Shown piece after piece: positions 14,143 through 64,000 of a DNA stretch of 64,000 bases. The notes below the pieces were generated by a model. The model was not told the origin of the DNA. It worked only from the letters and a program-made list of their open reading frames with translations, and did not search any database. The position numbers and the translations under genes were made by a program. The stretch spans positions 1-64,000 of the IMG/VR virus record IMGVR_UViG_3300042923_001201; one strand, given 5' to 3'. Source of the stretch: a virus. Every line of letters begins with the position of its first letter. The first letter of the stretch is position 1.

Positions 14143-14217
14143 AGTCGTGTAGCTCAATGGTAGAGCAGAGTGCTGTTAACACTAAGGTTACAGGTTCGAG
14201 TCCTGTCGTGACTGCCA
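14143..14217 (+). tRNA. tRNA-Asn(GTT)
   Basis: Full cloverleaf, TTCGAGT T-loop, encoded CCA. Confidence 0.9.
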
Positions 14218-14218
14218 T

Positions 14219-14297
14219 ACAGGTGTAGAGGAGTTTGGCCGTCCTCGCTTCCCTTGGAAGGAAGAAATCGCAGGTTCAAATCCTGCCACTTGTACCA
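14219..14297 (+). tRNA. tRNA-Pro(TGG), atypical (A1-U72, A37)
   Basis: CTTCC-CT-TGG-AA-GGAAG anticodon arm; CCA. Confidence 0.85.
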
Positions 14298-14298
14298 T

Positions 14299-14370
14299 GG
14301 CGCGTTAGTCAAAGGGTTAAGACATCAGACTTTCAATCTGAAATTACGGGTTCGAGTCCCGTACGCGCAA
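14299..14370 (+). tRNA. tRNA-Glu(TTC), no encoded CCA
   Basis: TCAGA-CT-TTC-AA-TCTGA; ACGGG-TTCGAGT-CCCGT; G1-A72 mismatch. Confidence 0.85.
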
Positions 14371-14374
14371 TTTT

Positions 14375-14458
14375 ATTTAATTGTAAGGCGAAATGCCATT
14401 GGTTCACTTCTCGCTAGTGATTAAATGAGGCACCAACGATAAGGCCGCCCTCAGCCAA
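14375..14458 (+). ncRNA. structured spacer RNA; candidate HDV-like (theta-type) ribozyme
   Basis: P1 ATTTAAT/ATTAAAT, P2 TTGGT/GCCAA, P3 CAC/GTG, L3 TTCTCGCTA, P1.1 TC/GA; J4/2 CTCA is imperfect. Confidence 0.4.
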
Positions 14459-14463
14459 ACTAT

Positions 14464-14551
14464 GTTAGAGCTGCAGAGATGGCGATCTGTGACGGGCTGT
14501 AACCCCGTTGTCCTCAGGACTTAGTGAGTTCGAATCTCACCTCTTTCACCA
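14464..14551 (+). tRNA. tRNA-Tyr(GTA), long variable arm, two U-U acceptor mismatches
   Basis: ACGGG-CT-GTA-AC-CCCGT; GTGAG-TTCGAAT-CTCAC; CCA. Confidence 0.75.
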
Positions 14552-14552
14552 T

Positions 14553-14628
14553 ACTCCTTTAATTCAGTGGTTAGAGCGTCGGTCTTATATACCGGTTGTC
14601 CCTGGTTCGAGTCCAGGAAGGAGTACCA
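14553..14628 (+). tRNA. tRNA-Ile(TAT)
   Basis: ACTCCTT/AAGGAGT acceptor; TCGGT-CT-TAT-AT-ACCGG; CCA. Confidence 0.88.
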
Positions 14629-14629
14629 T

Positions 14630-14703
14630 ATGGGTTTAGTTCAATGGTAGAACAACGGCTTCCAAACCCGTGGACGTGGGTTCGATTCCTACAACCTGTG
14701 CCA
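14630..14703 (+). tRNA. tRNA-Trp(CCA)
   Basis: ACGGC-TT-CCA-AA-CCCGT; G73; CCA. Confidence 0.85.
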
Positions 14704-44680: not shown

Positions 44681-45191
44681 AGTTTTTTACCTCATATCTT
44701 TTATTAATTAAAGTCCCCTTATCTAAATGATTGTTTAATGTTCTTATAGTTGTCCCTATAAAATCTTTTGCTTCATCTCTACTATTAAAGATTTGTGAAG
44801 TACTATTTAAATTATCAACCACAAGAGTTAATTTTTTTGCTTTTTTACTTCTTTTTTCTTTTGACTCTTTTGAATGTTTTCTACCTTTCATAGTTTCAGA
44901 TTGATTTAATTGCCATTTGATGCCTTGTTCAAAACAAGCTTCATTCATTCCTAAGGACCAATAATATCTTTTCATTTCTGTTTCGTATTTATATGCCTCT
45001 TTCCTATTGTCCGTTAAAAAGATTATTTCAATATCATAGCCGTTTTTATCTACAATTTCCCACCATTTCTTATTTCTCTTACCTCCATTTGTTCTTTTAG
45101 CATGATAAGGCCTACCTAAATCCCCACTACCGACATAAAAAACGTGATCGGTTCCTTTTATTTTATGAACATATACACAGTACTTTACCAT
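44667..45191 (-). CDS. GIY-YIG homing endonuclease with NUMOD-type C-terminus
   Basis: YCVYVH...FYVGSG..R; KGRKHSKESKEK.S (NUMOD3); very AT-rich and overlaps both neighbours. Confidence 0.8.
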   Translation of the reverse strand: MVKYCVYVHKIKGTDHVFYVGSGDLGRPYHAKRTNGGKRNKKWWEIVDKNGYDIEIIFLTDNRKEAYKYETEMKRYYWSLGMNEACFEQGIKWQLNQSETMKGRKHSKESKEKRSKKAKKLTLVVDNLNSTSQIFNSRDEAKDFIGTTIRTLNNHLDKGTLINKRYEVKNYETT

Positions 45192-45724
45192 ACAACTGAT
45201 TCCTCCACAATTATTTTTTTGACCTTTTTAAGCGCGTCTTGATAGGTCTTGTTATTAATTACAATGTGCTCAACCTCATATTCAATTCCTTCAAAGTCGA
45301 CATTATCTGCTGAAAATCTACGATGGGCTTCAATTGCATTTCCATCTCTTTTTACATATCTATAAAATCTGTCTGCTTGCGGAGCCATAATATAAACGCC
45401 AATAACTCTATCTCCAAACTTCTCTTTAAAATTTCGATACCCTTGTGGTTCCAATACAATAACATATTTTTTACCTTCTTGGATAGAGTTATTAGGTGTT
45501 CCATATTTCCAATTATTAAATTCTTTGATTTCTATAAAGTCATTTTTATTAAACTCATCTTTTTTCTTGAAGTGATAGTGAACTCCATCAATTTCTCCAG
45601 GTCGGGGCGGACGTGATGTTGCTGTTACTACCTCTTCTATACCAAATATCTTTGAAATATCCTTGCAAATATCGCTCTTCCCAGAAGCAGCCTTACCTAA
45701 TATAACAAAAATTGTATCTTTCAT
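45185..45724 (-). CDS. guanylate kinase-like NMP kinase
   Basis: G.AASGKS, TSRPPRPGEIDGVHYHF, WKYG. Confidence 0.9.
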   Translation of the reverse strand: MKDTIFVILGKAASGKSDICKDISKIFGIEEVVTATSRPPRPGEIDGVHYHFKKKDEFNKNDFIEIKEFNNWKYGTPNNSIQEGKKYVIVLEPQGYRNFKEKFGDRVIGVYIMAPQADRFYRYVKRDGNAIEAHRRFSADNVDFEGIEYEVEHIVINNKTYQDALKKVKKIIVEESVVW

Positions 45725-45785
45725 GATTTTACCTCCATTGAAAATTACAAAGGTCACCCGATTAGAGTGACCTCAATATTAATTT

Positions 45786-46343
45786 TTATTTTTGTGAATT
45801 TTTAATCTGACGTTCAATTTCTGCAGTCAATTTAGGTTCAGGTGCAGACCAACCTTCAGGTTTCATAATTTTATTACCGTTCGCCGCATCATATCGAGGT
45901 TTTCCATCTTCCCAAAGTTTTGACATATTAGCATCTTGTACAATATCAAACAGTGGCTGCGGATCGGTTCCTGCAACAACAAACGAACCTTGGACAAAGT
46001 AGTTAACATCTGTAAGTGCATCCATTTGTTCTACAAGAACATTTACAACCTTGTTATCTTTTGCAATAATCTTTCTTTCTGTTTCAAATAAAGAGATTGA
46101 CAATTTTCTAACAAGTTGACGAAAAAGATCGAGATCATTGTTGGCAGTTGCATAAAGGAACTCAACAAGTTCTTCAGCAGTCCATTTTGTACGAGCAAGA
46201 GCAACGTCTGTAGGAATAGCTGTAGGTGAATCGGTAACAATATGACCAAATGCTTCGTGAAAATCCTTCACCTGATCTTTAGTATAATCGAGACCCTTAC
46301 GTTGAATTTTAGTTGTTGTTGTTGTTGTTGTTGTTTTAGCCAA
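45786..46343 (-). CDS. MazG-like all-alpha NTP pyrophosphohydrolase
   Basis: VKDFH.AFG, EELVE, DALTD..YF..G, V..ANMSK, KIMKP.GW..P. Confidence 0.85.
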   Translation of the reverse strand: MAKTTTTTTTTKIQRKGLDYTKDQVKDFHEAFGHIVTDSPTAIPTDVALARTKWTAEELVEFLYATANNDLDLFRQLVRKLSISLFETERKIIAKDNKVVNVLVEQMDALTDVNYFVQGSFVVAGTDPQPLFDIVQDANMSKLWEDGKPRYDAANGNKIMKPEGWSAPEPKLTAEIERQIKNSQK

Positions 46344-47419: not shown

Positions 47420-47644
47420 TTAACTGTTAACCAGATTTTGTGATTTTTTTTCTATAATTTTATATTCATTGTGGAAGATAAAATTAGTAGCGGCAGGATT
47501 ATCTGAATATTGTTTTACATAGACGCCATCTTTATCTTTGTTCATTACAACCATTCTTGTGCCAATATCGTAATCGCTGAAAGTAAGATCAGGATTAGTA
47601 ATTTCAATTTTGTCGCCAGGTTCAACAATATCTTTATTTTCCAT
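47420..47644 (-). CDS. small SH3-like hypothetical protein
   Basis: PGDKIEIT...EYKII. Confidence 0.6.
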   Translation of the reverse strand: MENKDIVEPGDKIEITNPDLTFSDYDIGTRMVVMNKDKDGVYVKQYSDNPAATNFIFHNEYKIIEKKSQNLVNS

Positions 47645-48839
47645 TTTTCATTTCCTCCACACTTTTATTAATAAGATTATTAAAATGAGTTCCATCTTTA
47701 TACTTCTGCTGAATAATAGCATCGCGCAATAGCAATCTCATTTTTGGATAGGCCCCGGGGTGAGTCTCTAAGAACTCAACTTTTTGTTTTAGTTCTTCAG
47801 GCGAGCTCACATACAACCAATCAGGTACACCGTGGTATTTTACAAGTAAACGGTCTTCATCATAGGTTTCATGGAAGAAAGGTATAATACCATGAGCTAC
47901 AGCCTCCACCCATTTCCCGCTAATGTCGCCCTTAATAATAGGATAGCAAAAAGTATATTTAACTGAAGGGAGAATAGTCTGAAGTTCATCAAATGATACC
48001 GAACCCATAAATTTGCGTTCATTGCCTTTTTGTTGAGTTTCATCCCATTTTCCATATACTTTAATATCGTCAAAGTTATTAATACAAAAATCTTGAATTA
48101 CTTTTATTCTCTTCTTATCATCGTACTGGTGGAAAAAAATCGAAAATTTTTCTGTCTTCGGTTTGTTAGGATGTTTTAATTGACTGTCAAGCAAGTATTG
48201 AGTTTCTGCTGCAGCATATTTTAACTTAACAGTATGCTCGACCATTGTAACTTGATCTTCATAGGACTTCATACGTTTGATTTTAACTTCACCCTCACGA
48301 ACTCCCAAACTAATCTTTTCAGGATTGATCATATCTCTCGCGGGCAATGGCATGTATCGGCCATCTGATGTGATTGTTAGCCAATTAATACGCGATTCAT
48401 TAAGATAATAAGTAATGGGAGAAACATAATTAACAAGAGACATAATAGGACGCCGTATGTCTTTTGTCGGAAGTTTAGTTTTTCGGTCCAGACAAAAAAT
48501 TCGACCAGGAATGGAAAGGCTACACATCCCACCGTGAATAATACCCACATCAATCTCAACATCTTTTAATCTCTCCCATACCCAAGTTGTTGGGTCATCA
48601 GTTTTAGGGTTAAAGCCTTCCCAAACATCAATTACATTCTTATTAGGAAACCACTTATCATATGTTTCTTGATTAATTCGACTCAAATCTGACTTGCCAA
48701 TCATATAGTAAATATTCTGAGGATTAAGTCGTGCAAGCGCCGATAGCAATATAGGAAATTCGTTATTTCCTGCATTGTGACCCCACTTTGTTCTATTAAA
48801 ATATGAAGACCTACCAATCTTACCAATAACTATTAACAT
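47634..48839 (-). CDS. GT-B glycosyltransferase, T4 DNA beta-glucosyltransferase-like
   Basis: Collinear similarity to T4 BGT as recalled: SDGRY~TDIRL; KVYGKW..FMGSV~EFFGN..FTGKI; KWVEA..G..PF...YD~RVWET...EFD; LYVSSPEELKQKV~FYVNNRAELIDRV. Confidence 0.7.
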   Translation of the reverse strand: MLIVIGKIGRSSYFNRTKWGHNAGNNEFPILLSALARLNPQNIYYMIGKSDLSRINQETYDKWFPNKNVIDVWEGFNPKTDDPTTWVWERLKDVEIDVGIIHGGMCSLSIPGRIFCLDRKTKLPTKDIRRPIMSLVNYVSPITYYLNESRINWLTITSDGRYMPLPARDMINPEKISLGVREGEVKIKRMKSYEDQVTMVEHTVKLKYAAAETQYLLDSQLKHPNKPKTEKFSIFFHQYDDKKRIKVIQDFCINNFDDIKVYGKWDETQQKGNERKFMGSVSFDELQTILPSVKYTFCYPIIKGDISGKWVEAVAHGIIPFFHETYDEDRLLVKYHGVPDWLYVSSPEELKQKVEFLETHPGAYPKMRLLLRDAIIQQKYKDGTHFNNLINKSVEEMKNGK

Positions 48840-49531
48840 GCTAAACCTCCGTTTTGATTTTGAATTTTAAATTCTAACTCTTTTTTAATAAATTCTTGTA
48901 TTTCTGAGAATCTATTAATAGTCATTTCAATTTTTTCTGAAGGATAGGTTTTTTCAAATCCTTTGGGTGTTTTTAGCATATATTTAATTTTTCTAGGTGT
49001 AATTGATAAAAATTTTGTAACTACTTTCATTAGGTCCTTATCAATTGAATTAACAAAATCTTTAATATCTCTTGTTTCCCACTCTCTAAATCTAACCCAA
49101 GGATTTGCACTTCCATTATCAATTAAAAATAATCTATTATTTTTATACCCATAATTGCCTGAGTGTCTGTCTCCATTATTTATAATAATATCAAATAGTG
49201 TTAATAATTTTGATTCAGTTTTTGTCTTTGTTCTTCCATCACTATTTGCTTTATCTGCAACTATAAACTTGTCTTCCCACCAATGAACTGAACAGTATTT
49301 ATTTAGTCCGAATACATCTCCCGTATTAATTAATTCTACCTTATTTGTAGGAATACCTAGTGTCTTACCTAGTCTGTAAGCAAAACATTCCATTAGTGCC
49401 TCTTCAAAGTTTTCACCTTTAATCATTACCTTTTTGTCTTCAAATTTGCCAATAACCTTTGGTGTAATTCCTCCGTGGCTCTTTCTTGCGTCATTTTTTG
49501 ACAATACAACTTCGATTTTACTTGAGTCCAT
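48833..49531 (-). CDS. HipA/PI3-PI4-kinase-like protein
   Basis: VMIK, E...YRL, FD.II.N.DRH.GN, LIDNG. Confidence 0.8.
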   Translation of the reverse strand: MDSSKIEVVLSKNDARKSHGGITPKVIGKFEDKKVMIKGENFEEALMECFAYRLGKTLGIPTNKVELINTGDVFGLNKYCSVHWWEDKFIVADKANSDGRTKTKTESKLLTLFDIIINNGDRHSGNYGYKNNRLFLIDNGSANPWVRFREWETRDIKDFVNSIDKDLMKVVTKFLSITPRKIKYMLKTPKGFEKTYPSEKIEMTINRFSEIQEFIKKELEFKIQNQNGGLAC

Positions 49532-49610
49532 TTTAATCCTCCTTATAAAATAAAAAAATCGTTATGATAAATTATATACATAACGATTTTTTCTGTAAAC
49601 CAGGATTCAA

Positions 49611-51068
49611 TTATTTATATAACTCTTTGAAATAATTATGTTTAAACTGATTGTCATACCAATCTTTGTTAAAATGTTCAGGTTTGACATAATATTCATA
49701 GAGTTCAAAGAATAAGTCTTTATAGGCTTGAGGGTATGTTTTAGCCCAAAGTACAGCTCGCTCAATATCCTCATTGCTGCTAACTACAAGATGATTTTTA
49801 AATTTTTTAGGAATCTGAAGGTTATCAATGTCATAGTTATCCGCAATAAGTGGAATAACCCCGTTGAGCAAAGACGAATACATACGGAAGTTCAATGAAT
49901 CATACTTGCCGTAAAAACATTTAAGGATAATTGTGAATCTATAATCTTTTTGCTCTTGATGATATTCTGCCTGTGAAACAGTAGGTTTTACATTTTTATT
50001 AAGTGAAATACTTTTAATAACTTCAAATGCCTTTTCATCTTTAATCTTTTTATTTTTAAATTTCTTTGTTTCTAACGGGTCTAAAATTTCACTCTGCGTA
50101 ATAGTTGAAGTTCCATCAGTTTGAGTTCTAATTGTTGCATCAACCGATAGGTCATTGAAGAATCGAGTCCAATCATGAAGCCTGTATGAAACATCATAAG
50201 GAAAAGTACCGCCAAAAATAAAGTCATGCTTTTTCTCCTCCAAAATAGTAGATAATTCGGCTATTGTAGGTTCTTCATTTCCATAAGCGTCTTGTAATTG
50301 TGCTGATGGAAACTCATGAAAGTCTCTCATAGGGCCTCGTTTATCATCCACGAAGTAAAAACACTTAACATTTTTCGTTAAGGGATTTACTTTGGCACTA
50401 AACGGGTACCAAATAGAGCTAGTGTCGTGAGAGAATGAGTAATGCCAAAGGTCTTTGTACTCTTTCATCAATCTTATGAGCAGGTATAAAGGGTACATAT
50501 TTCGTTGACTTATCATTCTGAAACTGAAGAATTGTTGTTCGCCGTTTAGTCTTCGTTGTGCAGTTCTTAAAGCGCCCGCAGATAACTTTTCACTTTTTTC
50601 ATCATAAGGAATAATTTCGTGATTCCGTTCATATACTAGGAATAGAGCAGAAGTGAGAGTACCCACAAGATTGTTAAAAATCCAAGGCTCGCCAGAAATA
50701 AGGTTAGTAAAAAGCTCTTGCATATAAGAATAAGTATGTTGAAAAGCTTTCTTATCATCATAAAACAACTCCTGTTCTCCAATTTCCATCCTCATGAATT
50801 TACCAGCGGCATCAAGATTAATATAAATACAGTCTTCAAGTACAGGAATTTCTTGTGCAGCTTCCATCCAAACTCCTTTTGAACTTGAGGATCGCGCAAT
50901 CAAAAATACATTAAAATCTTTTTTAAGTATTTTTACAGTATTAAGAATATATGAATAAGATAGGAAATTCGTTTTCTTACTAAGGTTTCGTTCAAGTAGA
51001 AATAGCATAATATTTTTCTTACCAGGAATATACTTTTTATAGTTTACAATTTCATAAGTTTTGGACAT
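49611..51068 (-). CDS. second GT-B glycosyltransferase, BGT-like C-terminal domain
   Basis: KKHDFIFGGTF~BGT KKTLDVIYGGSF; FRMYSSL..GVIPLI..NYD; LVVSSNEDI. Confidence 0.6.
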   Translation of the reverse strand: MSKTYEIVNYKKYIPGKKNIMLFLLERNLSKKTNFLSYSYILNTVKILKKDFNVFLIARSSSSKGVWMEAAQEIPVLEDCIYINLDAAGKFMRMEIGEQELFYDDKKAFQHTYSYMQELFTNLISGEPWIFNNLVGTLTSALFLVYERNHEIIPYDEKSEKLSAGALRTAQRRLNGEQQFFSFRMISQRNMYPLYLLIRLMKEYKDLWHYSFSHDTSSIWYPFSAKVNPLTKNVKCFYFVDDKRGPMRDFHEFPSAQLQDAYGNEEPTIAELSTILEEKKHDFIFGGTFPYDVSYRLHDWTRFFNDLSVDATIRTQTDGTSTITQSEILDPLETKKFKNKKIKDEKAFEVIKSISLNKNVKPTVSQAEYHQEQKDYRFTIILKCFYGKYDSLNFRMYSSLLNGVIPLIADNYDIDNLQIPKKFKNHLVVSSNEDIERAVLWAKTYPQAYKDLFFELYEYYVKPEHFNKDWYDNQFKHNYFKELYK

Positions 51069-51214
51069 TAAGCTTCCTCCTCAAACATTTCCATAGCATC
51101 ACCATAACCGTCCCAATTATCAACTCCGCATGCTTGCAAACATTCTAATAGAGCTTGATCATTCAAGAGTTGTTCATATTTTTCCTTACTAATTCTTACT
51201 GTGTTATTCATTTG

Positions 51215-51724
51215 TTATTTAATCTCCTTTGTAGTTGATTTACAACATCTTAAACATCTGCTAATGGGTCCTGATTCAAAAATGGGTCCTCCACACCTAC
51301 AGGTTTTAGTCTTGAACAAATCCATTAGTTCCTGGTAATCATCAACCAATGACTGTCTTCCCTGTTTTATATATTGCCTAATAACATCTGCCTGACAATT
51401 TTGACTTTTACCTTTAAAGATGTCATTAAAATCATCGAAACCTCTTGCATATTCAACAAGTTCAGGATTATTGTCTAAATAGTTTACCCATAACATCTTA
51501 TACCATTGAGATAGAAACCTTTTATCATATCTTTTGCCATTTAATTCAATATGGGTGGGTTCTCTACCTTTACCATCTTGCCAACCTATAGGAACAAAAT
51601 CATCAAACCTTTTACAAGTTTGGTAGTGATTTTCTATGCTATCAAATCTTTTCCATGCAGTTATTTTTGCATAAAAAGCAGAAAATCTTTTGTCACCTTT
51701 TGAAGAACATTCAAGTATCTTCAT
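51215..51724 (-). CDS. DarT1-associated-type NADAR (putative DNA ADP-ribosyl hydrolase)
   Basis: ILE.SSK, SAF, SIE..YQ..K.F, WY..LW, N..L, F.DI...S.NCQA, as recalled for this family; start at the ATG after AGGAGG. Confidence 0.65.
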   Translation of the reverse strand: MKILECSSKGDKRFSAFYAKITAWKRFDSIENHYQTCKRFDDFVPIGWQDGKGREPTHIELNGKRYDKRFLSQWYKMLWVNYLDNNPELVEYARGFDDFNDIFKGKSQNCQADVIRQYIKQGRQSLVDDYQELMDLFKTKTCRCGGPIFESGPISRCLRCCKSTTKEIK

Positions 51725-51817
51725 ATGTCCTCCTATATAAAATGAGAATTTTATTGCTATCATTTCCCTCTAATTTGCTTATTAGGGCAAGTTAGAGGGA
51801 GCTAGATGAAGGTAGAG

Positions 51818-52114
51818 CTATTTAATCTCAACCTGAACGTCAATTTCAGCATTTTCATTAAAATAAATGGTTTTTAGGTCTTTTTCGACTTGTTTTGTAA
51901 ATTCAACGAGTCTTTCATCAATTTGTTCTTGAGTTAACTGATTAAATATCTCTTTTTCTTCACCTTCGATGGGTTGAGTGACATTTACTTTAAAATAAAT
52001 CTGTTTCATCTTATTTCCTCCATTTGTACAATTCGGACAATCAACAGGTTCAGCTAAAGGGCCACTACCATCTTCCCAACCACCTAAATCATTACAAAGT
52101 TTACATTTTACCAT
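51818..52114 (-). CDS. hypothetical protein with N-terminal Zn ribbon (possibly two ORFs)
   Basis: CKLC...CPNC; internal GGAGG RBS before MKQIYF. Confidence 0.5.
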   Translation of the reverse strand: MVKCKLCNDLGGWEDGSGPLAEPVDCPNCTNGGNKMKQIYFKVNVTQPIEGEEKEIFNQLTQEQIDERLVEFTKQVEKDLKTIYFNENAEIDVQVEIK

Positions 52115-52884
52115 ATGGCAATGTCCTTATCTATATTTTTAGCTTTTCTATAAGCATATTGTTGAGCCTCAGCTAAGGAATCTTTATCTCCGCAGTCAAA
52201 CCATGGTGATGAAAGAAAATCAAAACTAAAACCTAAATTGTCAATATAATAATTAATTACATCTACAATTTCATATTCGCCACGACTAGAAGGTTCTAGT
52301 CCTTCTATAATGTTCCAAACATTTCTATCGTATATTTGTACGCCACAAAACGCCAAGGATGATCCGGGAACCTCAGGTTTTTCCTCAAGACTGTGTACAG
52401 TTCCATTTAGTGGATCTTTATGTCCCCCACCCCAAAAGTTTAACACTGCAAATTTTTGAAGGTCCCTTATATTTGTAAATTCTTTAACTGTAATAAATGC
52501 TCCACTATCATATTCATCAACAAATTTGTTAAGATCATCATATATAATATTATCTGCACAAAGAACAACAATATTATTATCTCTTGCAAAGTCTTTTGCC
52601 TGATACAAAGCATGAGCAACACCTTTTGGTTCATCCTGATAAAAGTATGTGAATTTACAACCATACTTTTCACCCGACTTCAAATAGTCAATCGTTTCAC
52701 CTGCTGATTTAACACCAAGTACAATTGCAATATCAGTAATTCCTGCGCTTACTAAATGCCACACTGAATACTCAATCATCAACTTGTCATAAACAGGCAT
52801 CAAGAATTTGTTTGTTACATCAGTGAGAGGAGACAATCTAGTCCCTCTCCCTCCTGCAAGGATTACGCCTTTAAATTTACTCAT
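52108..52884 (-). CDS. sugar-1-phosphate nucleotidyltransferase (RmlA/SpsI-like)
   Basis: GVILAGGRGTRL.PLT...K...PVYD, Q.EP.G.A.A, EEKP, RGE.EI.D, W.D.G. Confidence 0.92.
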   Translation of the reverse strand: MSKFKGVILAGGRGTRLSPLTDVTNKFLMPVYDKLMIEYSVWHLVSAGITDIAIVLGVKSAGETIDYLKSGEKYGCKFTYFYQDEPKGVAHALYQAKDFARDNNIVVLCADNIIYDDLNKFVDEYDSGAFITVKEFTNIRDLQKFAVLNFWGGGHKDPLNGTVHSLEEKPEVPGSSLAFCGVQIYDRNVWNIIEGLEPSSRGEYEIVDVINYYIDNLGFSFDFLSSPWFDCGDKDSLAEAQQYAYRKAKNIDKDIAIW

Positions 52885-53471
52885 TTTTGTACCTCCACCA
52901 TAATAATATCCTTGATATTAGCACGTTCTGCGGATACTCTGCCGATTTTATTATCTTCGAATACAATTACATCTTCTCCACCCAAACCCAAAGTGTTTAG
53001 AGCAAGAATATATGGATCGGCTTCTGGTTTTGCTTTTTTAACACTTTCCTTCGTGATGATTAAAGACAAATATTGAATAATCCCTAGTTTATCAAGAATT
53101 TGCTCAATCGAACCTCTACGTCCATTGGACACAACAGCAATTTTTCTACGACCATATTGTTGTTTGATAAGATCAATTAAAATGGTATTGGGTACCATGT
53201 ATTGATCAAGACATTGACCCAAAAACATTTTTTTGTCAGCAATGACCAATAACTTCATTGTTTCATAATTTTCATCATCAAGTAAAGACCTCATAAGGAA
53301 ATCTCCACCAAATGGAGCACATGCATCAAATACTTCTTCTTTAAAAGGAATGTTATTTTTTTCAAATGCGAGTTTATATGCTTGTTTGTGACATTCCATA
53401 GTGTCAGCGAGGGTTCCATCACAATCAAAAAGTAGTGCTCGCTTGCCAATCATCATTTTTTCAAGATCCAT
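52881..53471 (-). CDS. HAD-family phosphatase/mutase (beta-PGM/YqaB-like)
   Basis: FDCDGTL.DT, VSN, KP..DPY, FED...G. Confidence 0.9.
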   Translation of the reverse strand: MDLEKMMIGKRALLFDCDGTLADTMECHKQAYKLAFEKNNIPFKEEVFDACAPFGGDFLMRSLLDDENYETMKLLVIADKKMFLGQCLDQYMVPNTILIDLIKQQYGRRKIAVVSNGRRGSIEQILDKLGIIQYLSLIITKESVKKAKPEADPYILALNTLGLGGEDVIVFEDNKIGRVSAERANIKDIIMVEVQK

Positions 53472-53582
53472 ACTAAAGTTCCTCCTATAATTTGCGCAGT
53501 TATTCTTAAAACATTTCAATTTCTTCATGGGTATACCATGAACTTGTCTACTATATTTTTCATAACAATAACACTTATTCAT

Positions 53583-53813
53583 TTAAAGGTACCTAATTTC
53601 GGTAGTGCTATGTCCACCTGTCGTAGACGGAATAAAAGTTCCAATAATATCTTTTCTTTCTTTATAAACGATACAAACTGTAGCATAACTTATTGTATCG
53701 CCTGTTCTGTGAGAAAATTGAAGTATTTCAATATCAGGATTTTTATAAAAGAAATTGTTCATGTCATCTTCTACGCACGACCGGCTACCACCAAAAATTT
53801 TAGTTTTGTACAT
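53583..53813 (-). CDS. small protein, possibly Cse60-like
   Basis: KTKIF.....VE..MN.F......I.......IVY pattern. Confidence 0.45.
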   Translation of the reverse strand: MYKTKIFGGSRSCVEDDMNNFFYKNPDIEILQFSHRTGDTISYATVCIVYKERKDIIGTFIPSTTGGHSTTEIRYL

Positions 53814-54822
53814 TTTTCCATTCCTCCATAACTTGATTCAGGATTTCTATACCTATACAATAACAAATTTGCATCGAATCAAAGTTTTCCTTTAATCTGA
53901 ATGGAACCATTGAAATAAAGTGACTTGCTTCAAAAAATTTTGCCGCAATTTCCCAATTTAGTCCAACATCATAATACTGAGGAATTACAATTTGAGCCAT
54001 TTCATATAAGGTATTAAATTTTTCTACATTTCCTCGAATAAAATAGTCAACTCTATGATATTCCTCAAAAAAGTAATCACTATTTACAATATAATTCCCA
54101 TCATAGATAAGATCATATTTACCATGACAAGATTGGAAAATCTTACTAATGTCATAATAAATACTGTCGGGACCTTCTCCACGTGGGTCAATTACTTTCA
54201 TATCCCAACCATCAGACAAAACATTCTGAAATGTAAAGTCTCCGTGAGATCTATACCATTTTTCTGGACGTAAAAAATTTAAAAAGTCTTGGTCGTTCGA
54301 TATTTCCTCTATTAATAACCGAAGATTTTTTAATTTTCTACCGTTAATAATTAAGTAATCTTCCTCAAAAAGAGAATGATCCTTAATTTTTTCACATCTT
54401 TCAACCATCTTATCAAGATGTTTTTCTTTTATATAAGTATCTTTGTTTCCATCGTATGTTTCTGATTCAAGTGCAATTTTGGCGCCCAATGCAACCATAT
54501 TGGACAGCGCCTCAAGGTGAAAATGTTCCAAGTCTTTTTCAATAAAAGTGTCTTTGAGAGTAGGCATATCTAAATATTCCATATCATAATAAGCTTTGTC
54601 CTTCTCAATAACGAACAAATTCACTTGAGGAAAAATTGATTCAGGGGAATAGTAATTAAATATCTTCATCCATTCAAATTGGTTCTTTAATTTTTCGAGA
54701 CCCAAAATATCATTATTTTTAGTGTTAACAATTTTCCTAACATAGGCTTGTTTATCTTTTACAATAAAGAAAGTTTCAGCCATTGATCCGCCTTTAAATT
54801 GTTTAATAATTTTAGCTTTCAA
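53800..54822 (-). CDS. APH/choline-kinase-like phosphotransferase (putative sugar kinase)
   Basis: KGGS, VRK, HGDFTFQNVL, IDPRG, D..K..QS..G.YD; TTG start after GGAGG. Confidence 0.85.
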   Translation of the reverse strand: MKAKIIKQFKGGSMAETFFIVKDKQAYVRKIVNTKNNDILGLEKLKNQFEWMKIFNYYSPESIFPQVNLFVIEKDKAYYDMEYLDMPTLKDTFIEKDLEHFHLEALSNMVALGAKIALESETYDGNKDTYIKEKHLDKMVERCEKIKDHSLFEEDYLIINGRKLKNLRLLIEEISNDQDFLNFLRPEKWYRSHGDFTFQNVLSDGWDMKVIDPRGEGPDSIYYDISKIFQSCHGKYDLIYDGNYIVNSDYFFEEYHRVDYFIRGNVEKFNTLYEMAQIVIPQYYDVGLNWEIAAKFFEASHFISMVPFRLKENFDSMQICYCIGIEILNQVMEEWKNVQN

Positions 54823-54896
54823 TGTAGCACCTCCAAATTTATATATATCATTATATATAAATTGAATGAAGGTGTAAACCAAGATTAAAATTAATT

Positions 54897-55313
54897 TTAT
54901 ACTGCAACAGATTCAAGTTGACGGATTCTTTTACCTGTGTAAACCATATCTTCATCAAATACTTTGTTAAGTACTTCAATAACAAAATCAATCAAGTTTT
55001 CGTTATATAGCTTGATTTTATTTTGAACAAAGTTACCTGAGATCTTCGATTGGATACTTGCTACTTTATTTTCGTAGGAAGGAAGTGTTTTGAGGCTTTC
55101 TTCAAGCATTACATCTTGTTTGGTATCAATATACAAAGTGATAAAAGAATTTTTATTCATTCGGATAGCTCCGATACCTTTTTGTCTTTCAGCAGTTTTC
55201 AACAATAACCAACCCGGTTTTTCAGCAAATTGTACTCTTACCTTGTCACCACATTCCATTTCGATGATTTCTTTTAGGATTCCGAGTTCTGCTTTATTGT
55301 TGTTAACTGTCAT
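54897..55313 (-). CDS. hypothetical protein
   Basis: ORF with own promoter and AAGGAG RBS. Confidence 0.65.
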   Translation of the reverse strand: MTVNNNKAELGILKEIIEMECGDKVRVQFAEKPGWLLLKTAERQKGIGAIRMNKNSFITLYIDTKQDVMLEESLKTLPSYENKVASIQSKISGNFVQNKIKLYNENLIDFVIEVLNKVFDEDMVYTGKRIRQLESVAV

Positions 55314-55593
55314 TATTATCGCTCCTTCTAATTGGTTGTAATTTTTTGTATTTGCGTTCCATAGATTTATATTATCATAGTAGAACATTTTTGTAAATAG
55401 TTTTGACTCGACTTTTTTTAATTGTTTTTAATTACTAAAATTTGCTACGACATTGTTATATTATTATATTAAACCAATTTAACGTATTTTAAACATCATT
55501 TTCATAATTTAATTTTAACATTTTTCATAATAAAATTATATGATGAAATATTGTAAATATTCATAAAAATATGTAAAAAAAATAAAGCAGTTT

Positions 55594-55980
55594 TTACACC
55601 GCTTTATTAATGTAACCTAGGCTAGGATCTTCTTGACGTAGGATATTTATGTTGTTTTTTTCGAGGTACATTTTCATTATCGTTTTTTCGTCAAGATCAA
55701 GGAAGATAGCTATGTTTGATAAAAATATAAAAATGTCAAGAAATTCCTTTCGCCCTTCTTCAATTTTTTTTTCTAATTCTTCTTGAGTTAGATGAGAATA
55801 GTCTACCCAAGGTTTGTGAAATGGCAATTCACGAAGCATTTCATATGTTTCTTCGATAAGGAACATAGAGTGAGTATGAATGAAATTCATTCTTTCCTCA
55901 ATGGACATGTTTTCGCTGAATCCAAAACGTTTTTGAAATTCAGCCTGCATGTTAAGAACTGTTTGGAACGACTTTTTCAT
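55594..55980 (-). CDS. dimeric dUTPase/dCTPase (T4 gp56-like all-alpha family)
   Basis: MQ..FQ, EE..E.....KPW, E..D...F, Y..KN..N..RQ...Y. Confidence 0.85.
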   Translation of the reverse strand: MKKSFQTVLNMQAEFQKRFGFSENMSIEERMNFIHTHSMFLIEETYEMLRELPFHKPWVDYSHLTQEELEKKIEEGRKEFLDIFIFLSNIAIFLDLDEKTIMKMYLEKNNINILRQEDPSLGYINKAV

Positions 55981-56568: not shown

Positions 56569-56690
56569 TTAATATTCTCCTTTGCAGACGATTGAGGAGA
56601 TGGTCTACACCTCCATCAACGCCCTTTATGATTTTTTGTATATTATCATTATATATACATTCTAGCAATGTGTAAACCATTGTACAACCA

Positions 56691-63327: not shown

Positions 63328-64000
63328 CTATTCTTCAAGAGCTGTTTCTGTATATTTATGAAGATTTTTTTCAATGAAGCCTTTTCGATCGGTTATATCA
63401 CTTCCCATAAACATATTGATCATATCCTTCATCTTTTTAGCATCGTCCATTGTGATTTGCTCAAGGATTCGAGTTTTAGGATCCATAGCTGTATAATTCA
63501 TTGTTTCAGGTTCCAACTCACCCAAACCTTTACAGCGAGCAAGTGTGTACTTCCGTTTTATTTTTGGTAATTGTTCGTCCTTTTCAGCTTCACTAAACAG
63601 ATAAGACATTGAATCATCTTCATATTTCACTTCATAGAGCGGTGTCTTTGCAATATAAACCCTACCATTTTCAATCAGTTTCGGAACAAGGACATAAACC
63701 ATTGTAATAATGAGGCACTGAATTTGTTGTCCATCTGGATCTGCATCTGTTGCAATGATAAGTTTACCATATCTCAACAATTTTTCATTAAATGATTCAA
63801 GATCCTTATTCTTTTTATCGGCTTGAATACCGCATCCCAAAGCACGAATCAAATCGAGGATAATACCATTCTTGAATATCGTTGAATAATCTGCTTTGAG
63901 GCAATTTAGGATCTTTCCACGTAAGGCATACGCTGCTTGAATTTGGGAATCCCTTGCAAGAATCAATGAACCCAATGCTGATAATCCTTCTGCAACAAAC
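63328..64000 (-). CDS. type IIA topoisomerase subunit B, C-terminal part (runs off the window)
   Basis: EGLSA, LRGKILN, TDADPDG, KGLGE. Confidence 0.93.
   Translation of the reverse strand, partial: FVAEGLSALGSLILARDSQIQAAYALRGKILNCLKADYSTIFKNGIILDLIRALGCGIQADKKNKDLESFNEKLLRYGKLIIATDADPDGQQIQCLIITMVYVLVPKLIENGRVYIAKTPLYEVKYEDDSMSYLFSEAEKDEQLPKIKRKYTLARCKGLGELEPETMNYTAMDPKTRILEQITMDDAKKMKDMINMFMGSDITDRKGFIEKNLHKYTETALEE

Follow-up and report, generated by a model that had tools for sequence, protein, structure and literature searches.

Two BGT-like glycosyltransferases and a sugar-activation cassette in a soil-metagenome myovirus: a predicted pathway for glycosylated 5-hydroxymethylcytosine with a phage-made donor

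The IMG/VR virus record IMGVR_UViG_3300042923_001201 is 94,472 bp long and is estimated by CheckV to be complete (100%). We analysed its first 64 kb, hereafter the window, in which a gene cluster at 47634–55980 appears to encode most of a pathway for hypermodification of the phage DNA. A preliminary description of the window had proposed that two transferases resembling the β-glucosyltransferase (BGT) of phage T4 act here with their own supply of nucleoside diphosphate (NDP)-sugar; structure models of both enzymes, and an enzyme of the T4 gp42 type encoded beyond the window, now support this reading in silico. The genes it named are all present within the cluster and share one orientation, as all sizeable open reading frames (ORFs) between the start of a 128-residue gene (55980) and the stop of a 401-residue gene (47634) lie on the minus strand. 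Along the direction of transcription these are a 128-residue dUTPase_2-like protein, a 163-residue ORF, a 360-residue APH-like kinase, a 76-residue ORF, a 233-residue HAD_2 protein, a 258-residue NTP_transferase, a 98-residue ORF, a 182-residue NADAR protein, a glycosyltransferase of 485 residues (GT485), a 232-residue HipA/PI3K-like kinase and a glycosyltransferase of 401 residues (GT401); the HipA/PI3K-like kinase, NADAR and the ORFs of 98, 76 and 163 residues had gone unmentioned before. The cluster lies, as described, between guanylate kinase/MazG genes and dnaE, with guanylate kinase, MazG and RusA downstream and dnaE upstream, and is embedded in a replication and nucleotide-metabolism module of dnaE, topoisomerase, RecJ, primase and DnaB. 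None of 50,697 phage records matched the 8.3-kb region in a megablast search.

GT401 (47634–48839) is a predicted DNA glycosyltransferase with 5-hydroxymethylcytosine (hmC) as its acceptor, and GT485 (49611–51068) an enlarged protein of the same BGT-like GT-B type. GT401 matched Glyco_trans_1_2 in Pfam only weakly (E value 3e-4), and a Pfam search with GT485 returned no match. AlphaFold models, built from alignments of 23 (GT401) and 28 (GT485) metagenomic homologues, predict a GT-B fold for both, with predicted local distance difference test (pLDDT) scores of 91.2 and 86.7. The top Foldseek match of each model in the PDB was T4 BGT (E 6e-9 for GT401, 3e-6 for GT485). VIA-align superposed GT401 on BGT with a Z score of 22.1 (root-mean-square deviation 4.3, 317 of 351 residues aligned), and GT485 with a Z score of 19.0 (302 residues aligned). 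GT4 or teichoic-acid glycosyltransferases, which had been named as possible nearest relatives, ranked lower: BGT led other GT-B families by about 3 Z units in both cases, GT401 scoring 19.3 with BshA, 16.7 with T4 α-glucosyltransferase (AGT) and 16.4 with the arabinosyltransferase of phage HY126, and GT485 scoring 15.4 with SenB and 15.0 with the HY126 enzyme. In BFVD, a library of viral models, GT485 has its top match in a protein that carries the annotation DNA β-glucosyltransferase.

The likeness of the C-terminal domains to BGT, previously seen by eye, is weak by profile and clear by structure. Comparison with BGT by hhalign covered the C-terminal domain only, at a probability of 17–28% (E 6e-4 for GT401 and 1.4e-3 for GT485), and paired the BGT motifs RVWE...IDEEFD with KWVE...FHETYD in GT401 and FRMYS...IADNYD in GT485. 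K309/E312 of GT401 and R395/S398 of GT485 are thereby placed on R269/E272 of BGT, which bind uridine diphosphate (UDP). The C-terminal domains of GT401 and GT485 are homologous to each other (hhalign 96.8%, E 2.7e-10), and the computed isoelectric points of the two proteins are 8.9 and 8.0, against 9.05 for BGT. By their modelled folds, then, GT401 and GT485 resemble BGT; they stand outside its sequence family.

The two transferases would act on a base that has already been substituted, and the preliminary description had pointed out that the window holds no enzyme that would form such a base. This proved correct, and a scan of the rest of the genome located a thymidylate-synthase homologue 4.2 kb past the window end (genome 68204–69265, minus strand; PF00303, E 1.2e-29), a predicted deoxycytidine monophosphate (dCMP) hydroxymethylase. 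It scores 104 bits on PF00303, above the cut-off, and has a counterpart of the catalytic Cys146. On one side it adjoins a deoxynucleoside monophosphate (dNMP) kinase (genome 69281–69778, minus strand; AAA_18, dNK and Thymidylate_kin matches), and on the other a 99-residue ORF followed by a C5-methyltransferase-like gene (genome 66696–67904, minus strand; PF00145, E 1e-20). The solved protein nearest to the synthase homologue is the CMP hydroxymethylase MilA (E 4e-29). We aligned its active site with those of E. coli ThyA, T4 gp42, SPO1 gp29, RB69 gp48, phage G gp319 and PLANC_65 of the Enterococcus phage Planchet, and found it identical to T4 gp42 at 14 of the 14 positions checked (ThyA numbering). 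As in gp42, Asp takes the place of Asn177, the cytosine determinant, and of Leu143, the latter change being shared with hydroxymethylating homologues, and Asp169 is kept; SPO1 gp29, a dUMP hydroxymethylase, differs at four of the 14 positions and keeps Asn177. From the signature Asp177, Asp143 and Asp169 we predict 5-hydroxymethyl-dCMP as the product. A 5-hydroxy-dCMP synthase of the RB69 gp48 type was considered and is excluded by the Asp at position 169, where the change to Asn (D169N) is diagnostic for the RB69 enzyme and Asn is found in all tested 5-hydroxy-dCMP synthases (PMC13326640).

Three genes of the cluster would supply the sugar donor, and the catalytic motifs of all three products are intact, which lends the proposed pathway further support at the level of sequence. 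The first encodes an RmlA-type sugar-1-phosphate nucleotidyltransferase (52108–52884; PF00483, NTP_transferase, E 3e-43), which overlaps the HAD gene by 4 nucleotides, an arrangement already noted in the preliminary description. Among solved proteins, B. anthracis RmlA comes nearest to it (E 1e-46), and it is closest to the short RmlA enzymes. Relative to E. coli RmlA it keeps GGxGTR, Q83, G88, D111, N112, E162, K163, R195, W224 and D226; here and below, the nucleotide- and sugar-contact roles of the compared residues are those that we take over from RmlA structures. The HAD protein (52881–53582; HAD_2, E 1.5e-24) is a HAD-IA hydrolase of the beta-phosphoglucomutase/YqaB subfamily and a predicted sugar-phosphate phosphatase, with matches to TIGR02009 (E 4e-25) and to the TM_1254 sugar phosphatase (E 2.7e-14) and with all four catalytic motifs (DxDGT, SNG, KP, ED). 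Its true start is probably near residue 38, as its ORF begins about 37 codons earlier than those of the siblings (a sibling homologue has 201 residues).

The third gene (53800–54882) encodes a small-molecule kinase of the APH/choline-kinase-like type, a predicted anomeric sugar kinase. The earlier APH assignment stands: the Pfam APH match is weak (E 0.05) and is backed by phrog_21938 (E 2.5e-62), by distant homology to the kinase domain of RB69 gp52, an arabinose-5-phosphate 1-kinase (E 2e-5), and by intact HGDFTFQN (HGDxxxxN) and IDPRG motifs. Its Atlas neighbours are APH clusters, it is similar to the kinase half of a fusion protein in a sibling locus, L013 (E 2e-14; see below), and a comparison with PDB sequences found nothing useful. 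APH-type sugar kinases mostly phosphorylate the anomeric carbon, as do NahK, AmgK, MtnK and maltokinase. The kinase probably starts further downstream than the listed TTG; the promoter-like site at 54878–54850 falls within its first codons. The comparison that had been made with the NDP-heptose pathway (HddA/GmhB/HddC) fares poorly, as the kinase is APH-like and not of the GHMP type and the HddC model reaches 35 bits where the cut-off is 300. It is a weaker analogy than those with AfhE/AfhF of RB69 and HY126 (PMC13326640) and with AmgK/MupP/MurU.

At the head of the cluster, the 128-residue protein (55594–55980) is a small all-alpha NTP pyrophosphatase and a candidate dCTPase/dUTPase. It had been called gp56-like, a label for which there is now weak backing in a dUTPase_2 match just under the cut-off (E 1.6e-4) and a local match to the C-terminus of T4 gp56 (residues 130–171, E 7e-6); against PDB sequences it gave chance-level matches only. 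It is 51–54% identical in siblings, and a terminator-like hairpin follows its gene at 55608–55581.

The same genes recur in relatives. Searched with the GT485 alignment, IMG/VR yielded 19 loci, and the GT485 family is small, with about 80–140 clusters among 1.84 billion representative proteins (144 at E ≤ 1e-3); tblastn with GT485 against 50,697 deposited phage genomes found no member. In the siblings L010–L012 the order of kinase, HAD, nucleotidyltransferase, GT485, HipA-like kinase and GT401 is the same as here. In a fourth sibling, L013 (a 94.7-kb contig), GT485 and GT401 are kept at 62–63% identity, and the split cassette is replaced by a small HAD protein, 34% identical to RB69 gp51, and a 538-residue nucleotidyltransferase-kinase fusion (L013:11388–14915). 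This swap occurs at the same position, which is therefore a slot for sugar activation whose genes can be exchanged. Genes for homing endonucleases lie between the HipA-like kinase and GT401 in two siblings (HNH/NUMOD4 in L013; GIY-YIG/NUMOD3 in L011, L011:12240–12968), and such endonucleases may drive cassette exchange among siblings. On more distant contigs of about 29–240 kb (L014, L022, L024/L028, L025, L026), GT485-like, GT401-like and C5-methyltransferase-like genes have a dNMP kinase gene and a gp42-type synthase gene no more than 10 kb away, and in L022, L024/L028 and L025 a nucleotidyltransferase-kinase fusion gene stands immediately upstream of the GT485-like gene. The thymidylate-synthase homologue was found in four of five further whole records searched, the exception being only 65% complete. 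The gp42 signature is present in 11/11 thymidylate-synthase homologues from records with a GT485 relative (10 exact, one with Ser for Thr147), and the transferase family of GT485 is therefore tied to hydroxymethylcytosine.

Cultured phages carry parts of the module as well. GT401 is 42% identical to PLANC_61 of Enterococcus phage Planchet (OX422066.1), and Enterococcus faecium phages of the genus Denvervirus (Planchet, 9183, TJE4) have a GT401 homologue, a gp42-signature enzyme, the fusion and the small HAD protein; in Planchet, the enzyme with the gp42 signature is PLANC_65. Two annotations in the Planchet locus (L001:8779–13209, from OX422066.1) can be reread: PLANC_62 (543 residues), annotated 'glycosyltransferase', is the nucleotidyltransferase-kinase fusion, and PLANC_63, annotated 'polynucleotide kinase', is the small HAD protein. 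The paper on Planchet is silent on DNA modification (PMC11210271). The closest cultured-phage relative of the synthase homologue is gp319 of Bacillus phage G, annotated as a thymidylate synthase, which shares 41% identity with it and carries the gp42 signature in full. In the same phage G locus (L007:1293–7029), gp313, annotated as an alpha-glucosyltransferase, and a kinase are encoded near gp319. Phage G may also carry glycosylated hmC.

Taken together, these genes are best read as a pre-replicative, T4-type cytosine hypermodification system whose product would be glycosylated hmC made with a phage-made donor, a reading to which we give a probability of roughly 70%. What the analysis shows is how the proteins fold, to which families they belong, which active-site signatures they carry and how the genes are ordered and co-occur; from this we infer the individual catalytic steps, the acceptor, the identity of the sugar and which transferase acts first. 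The gp56-like pyrophosphatase, and possibly MazG too, would deplete dCTP, and the gp42-type homologue would turn dCMP into 5-hydroxymethyl-dCMP. Its conversion to the triphosphate would fall to the neighbouring dNMP kinase together with the host NDP kinase, the phage DnaE polymerase would incorporate the triphosphate into DNA, and GT401 and GT485 would finally attach sugar to the hydroxymethyl groups of that DNA. For the donor, the APH-like kinase would place a phosphate on C1 of a sugar, or of a sugar phosphate, drawn from the host, the HAD protein would remove the other, distal phosphate, either after the kinase (like AfhF and GmhB) or before it (like MupP), and the RmlA-type nucleotidyltransferase would couple the sugar-1-phosphate to dTTP or UTP. 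The most likely order is C1 phosphorylation, dephosphorylation by the HAD protein and activation with dTTP or UTP; the MupP-like order, with the phosphatase first, or a mutase role for the HAD protein, is possible. The donor itself is most likely a deoxythymidine diphosphate (dTDP)- or UDP-hexose, the sugar thus probably being a hexose.

Which transferase uses this donor may also be suggested by the sequence. In BGT crystal structures, Glu272 touches the UDP ribose. GT485 is the likelier user of the phage-made NDP-sugar, because the nucleotidyltransferase gene is adjacent and because Ser occupies the position of BGT Glu272; its donor may perhaps be a dTDP-sugar, which is speculation. In L010–12, L015, L022, L024/28 and L025, the next matched gene upstream of the GT485 homologue encodes a nucleotidyltransferase or nucleotidyltransferase-kinase. 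A further-reaching version of the proposal, which we put forward tentatively, holds that the phage makes a sugar new to DNA, possibly dTDP-activated, that GT485 adds it and GT401 adds a second sugar to give a new hmC-linked glycan, and that the C5-methyltransferase-like partner performs an unrecognised step of the pathway, not ordinary methylation.

Several observations weigh against the proposed pathway. The BGT family PF09198 (CAZy GT63) gave no match at E ≤ 1 among the 23 and 28 family members, the GT401 and GT485 family profiles gave none at E ≤ 1 against PDB sequences, and no counterpart of the BGT catalytic base Asp100 could be located, the N-terminal domain being unalignable by sequence. 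The nucleotidyltransferase falls below both NCBIfam cut-offs (186 bits for rmlA_long, cut-off 320; 154 bits for rmlA, cut-off 361), and its pocket differs from that of E. coli RmlA at L89V, G147A, V173F, Y177Q and T201V. The dCTPase assignment of the 128-residue protein consists of weak matches. The conserved C5-methyltransferase-like companion is not accounted for by full pre-replicative replacement of cytosine, and 12 of 15 distant IMG/VR loci have a homologue of it no more than 10 kb from the GT485-like gene, often adjoining the GT401-like gene. Finally, the phage comes from one soil metagenome and is known from sequence only. As to the companion, a route through a C5-methyltransferase and a TET dioxygenase (MT/TET) was ruled out: a search for Tet_JBP (PF12851) found no Tet/JBP dioxygenase in the genome or in the records of five relatives, which places the C5-methyltransferase-like gene outside any such route.

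The alternative that fares best keeps the same DNA chemistry and is a sub-case of the proposed pathway, its weight not being additive with those of the others. Here the product would be ordinary glucosyl-hmC, and the cassette would secure dTDP- or UDP-glucose while bypassing the host phosphoglucomutase and GtaB/GalU, for example from glucose-6-phosphate through glucose-1,6-bisphosphate to glucose-1-phosphate; the sugar would then not be new. The preliminary description had held plain UDP-glucose to be an improbable donor, yet dTDP- or UDP-glucose is possible because the nucleotidyltransferase is of the RmlA type with most glucose-1-phosphate contacts kept; true glucose-1-phosphate thymidylyltransferases are its nearest relatives (E 1e-46), and it retains N112, E162, K163, R195 and W224, although several residues of its sugar pocket have changed. 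The HAD protein belongs to the beta-phosphoglucomutase subfamily, whose chemistry runs via glucose-1,6-bisphosphate, and BGT, the best structural match, uses UDP-glucose. Host galU mutants yield unglucosylated, restriction-sensitive T4, so that a phage with its own supply of a glucose donor would profit. However, three genes for a common metabolite are costly, and the GT25 and DXD glycosyltransferases and the pyruvyl transferase that distant relatives sometimes add point to diverse glycans in the wider family. On balance we consider plain glucosyl-hmC a possible outcome, and not the expected one.

An acceptor other than DNA is improbable, be it the wall teichoic acid of the host, a protein of the virion or some small molecule; in that case the hydroxymethylase would act independently. 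BshA, TarM and SenB, which act on small molecules or teichoic acid, score only about 3 Z units lower than BGT, and in a metavirome survey about 65% of contigs with such glycosyltransferases had no base-modifying enzyme nearby (bioRxiv 10.1101/2023.12.21.572611). BGT is nevertheless the top structural match of both transferases, the link to a gp42-type enzyme is strict (11/11 homologues and 4/5 whole records, the fifth being the incomplete one), and the genes sit among replication genes and not among lysis or structural genes. Sugar attachment to another base, 5-hydroxymethyluracil as in SPO1 or 5-hydroxycytosine as in RB69, is very unlikely: the synthase homologue is nearer overall to SPO1 gp29 (37% identity) than to T4 gp42 (26%) and the sibling L013 has an RB69-type sugar cassette, but Asp177 is the cytosine determinant (Asn in SPO1 gp29), Asp169 stands where the tested 5-hydroxy-dCMP synthases have Asn (PMC13326640), and arabinose-5-phosphate isomerase is not encoded.

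The predicted pathway to glycosylated hmC has precedents on both its base and its sugar side. With the glucosyl-hmC system of T4 it shares the gp42-type active site, a dNMP kinase beside the synthase homologue, a small gp56-like pyrophosphatase, two transferases per genome and BGT as the best structural match. Unlike those of T4, the transferases lie outside the detectable BGT sequence family and are 50–134 residues longer, and the C5-methyltransferase-like companion, the DnaE-type polymerase and the probable spore-forming Bacillota host also set the phage apart; T4 draws on host UDP-glucose, whereas the phage here encodes a kinase, a HAD protein and a nucleotidyltransferase. The host assignment is a probable one, a relative's contig being labelled Pseudoneobacillus. 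The earlier description of the phage as a myovirus is confirmed by genes for a tail sheath (phrog_279) and a baseplate wedge.

For the sugar side, RB69, DLP3 and HY126 use a phage-made NDP-sugar, the UDP-arabinose of AfhE/AfhF, on DNA to form arabinosyl-5-hydroxycytosine (PMC13326640). The logic of kinase, HAD phosphatase and nucleotidyltransferase is the same, here predicted from the genes; the kinase is distantly homologous to the gp52 kinase domain, the HY126 arabinosyltransferase is a structural neighbour of GT401 and GT485 (Z 15.0–16.4), and the sibling L013 has an AfhF-like HAD protein with an AfhE-like fusion. In contrast to the RB69 system, kinase and nucleotidyltransferase have a gene each, the latter enzyme is RmlA-type and not MurU-like, the HAD protein is of another subfamily with no similarity to gp51, no arabinose-5-phosphate isomerase is encoded, and Asp169 is kept in the synthase homologue, so that a hydroxymethyl rather than a hydroxyl group is expected. 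Two related candidates were rejected. The arabinose route was ruled out when the SIS domain of arabinose-5-phosphate isomerase was not found here, in Planchet or in four relatives; arabinose is on that account an unlikely sugar, unless the host provides its precursor. An Afh-type UDP-arabinose pathway was ruled out by the separate genes, the HAD protein unrelated to RB69 gp51 and the lack of a SIS domain.

The cassette also resembles AmgK/MupP/MurU, which recycle UDP-N-acetylmuramic acid (UDP-MurNAc), in combining an APH-type anomeric kinase, a HAD-IA phosphatase and an NTP_transferase, with weak NCBIfam matches to MupP and MurU; the scores are, however, far below the family cut-offs, and the nucleotidyltransferase is much nearer RmlA than MurU. 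The preliminary description knew of no such BGT-type system in a Paenibacillus-like myovirus; the kind as such is already on record, since similar GT-B clusters associated with ThyS and containing APH phosphotransferases have been counted, though not characterised, in metaviromes (Pyle et al., bioRxiv 10.1101/2023.12.21.572611). Like those clusters, the module combines BGT-like GT-B enzymes with a thymidylate-synthase homologue, methyltransferases, secondary glycosyltransferases and APH phosphotransferases as neighbours. The clusters that Pyle et al. reconstituted are post-replicative, MT/TET-dependent and not ThyS-linked, unlike the present one with its lack of TET/JBP. The present instance differs from these precedents in the paralogous BGT-like pair outside the BGT sequence family, the split cassette of an RmlA-type nucleotidyltransferase and a beta-phosphoglucomutase-type HAD protein, the conserved methyltransferase-like companion and the probable host. 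By analogy, the logic of the system would be that of T4 glucosyl-hmC joined to the phage-made donor idea of RB69, DLP3 and HY126.

The remaining genes of the interval have less certain places in this scheme. The HipA/PI3K-like kinase (48833–49531; HipA_2, E 1.8e-5) has intact GDRHxxN and IDNG motifs, an isoelectric point of 9.2, and HipA and PI3K/PI4K clusters as its Atlas structure and feature neighbours. Its gene overlaps the start of GT401 by 7 nucleotides, is preceded by a promoter-like site, and is 37–40% identical in L010–L013, where it lies between both transferases; it is absent from the distant loci. NADAR (51215–51763; PF22397, E 1.3e-9), of the DarT1-associated type, and the adjoining acidic 98-residue ORF (51818–52114) gave no match by tblastn in the four sibling loci L010–L013. 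They look like an inserted anti-DarT accessory gene, for the reversal of DNA ADP-ribosylation, and not like a core part of the module. The 163-residue ORF (54897–55388; about 135 residues in relatives) is clade-specific, its 35 homologues all belonging to this phage clade; neither it nor these homologues contain a Pfam domain, and its profile found nothing among PDB sequences.

Outside the cluster, the minus strand carries guanylate kinase (45185–45757; Guanylate_kin, E 6e-18), the MazG-type NTP pyrophosphohydrolase (45786–46343; PRA-PH, E 9e-14) and, at the window edge, the 3' part of gyrB (63328–64000; whole gene, genome 63328–65271; gyrB domains). Near-consensus promoter-like sites of the form TTTACA-17-TATAAT occur on the minus strand at 56676–56648, 56325–56297, 54878–54850 and 49599–49571, and one of the form TTAACA-17-TATAAT at 47430–47402. 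Six tRNA genes (Asn, Pro, Glu, Tyr, Ile-TAT and Trp) are clustered at 14143–14703 in the structural module. Among sequencing runs, one soil-metagenome DNA run is listed, which may be the source sample, and no RNA run.

Glycosylated cytosines are a main means by which phages escape restriction enzymes and CRISPR cleavage, and they make phage DNA hard to sequence and engineer. As Denvervirus phages, which are studied for therapy, carry part of the module, the prediction can be tested on laboratory phages. The module appears to be a recurrent and biochemically untouched branch of the cytosine-glycosylation strategy.

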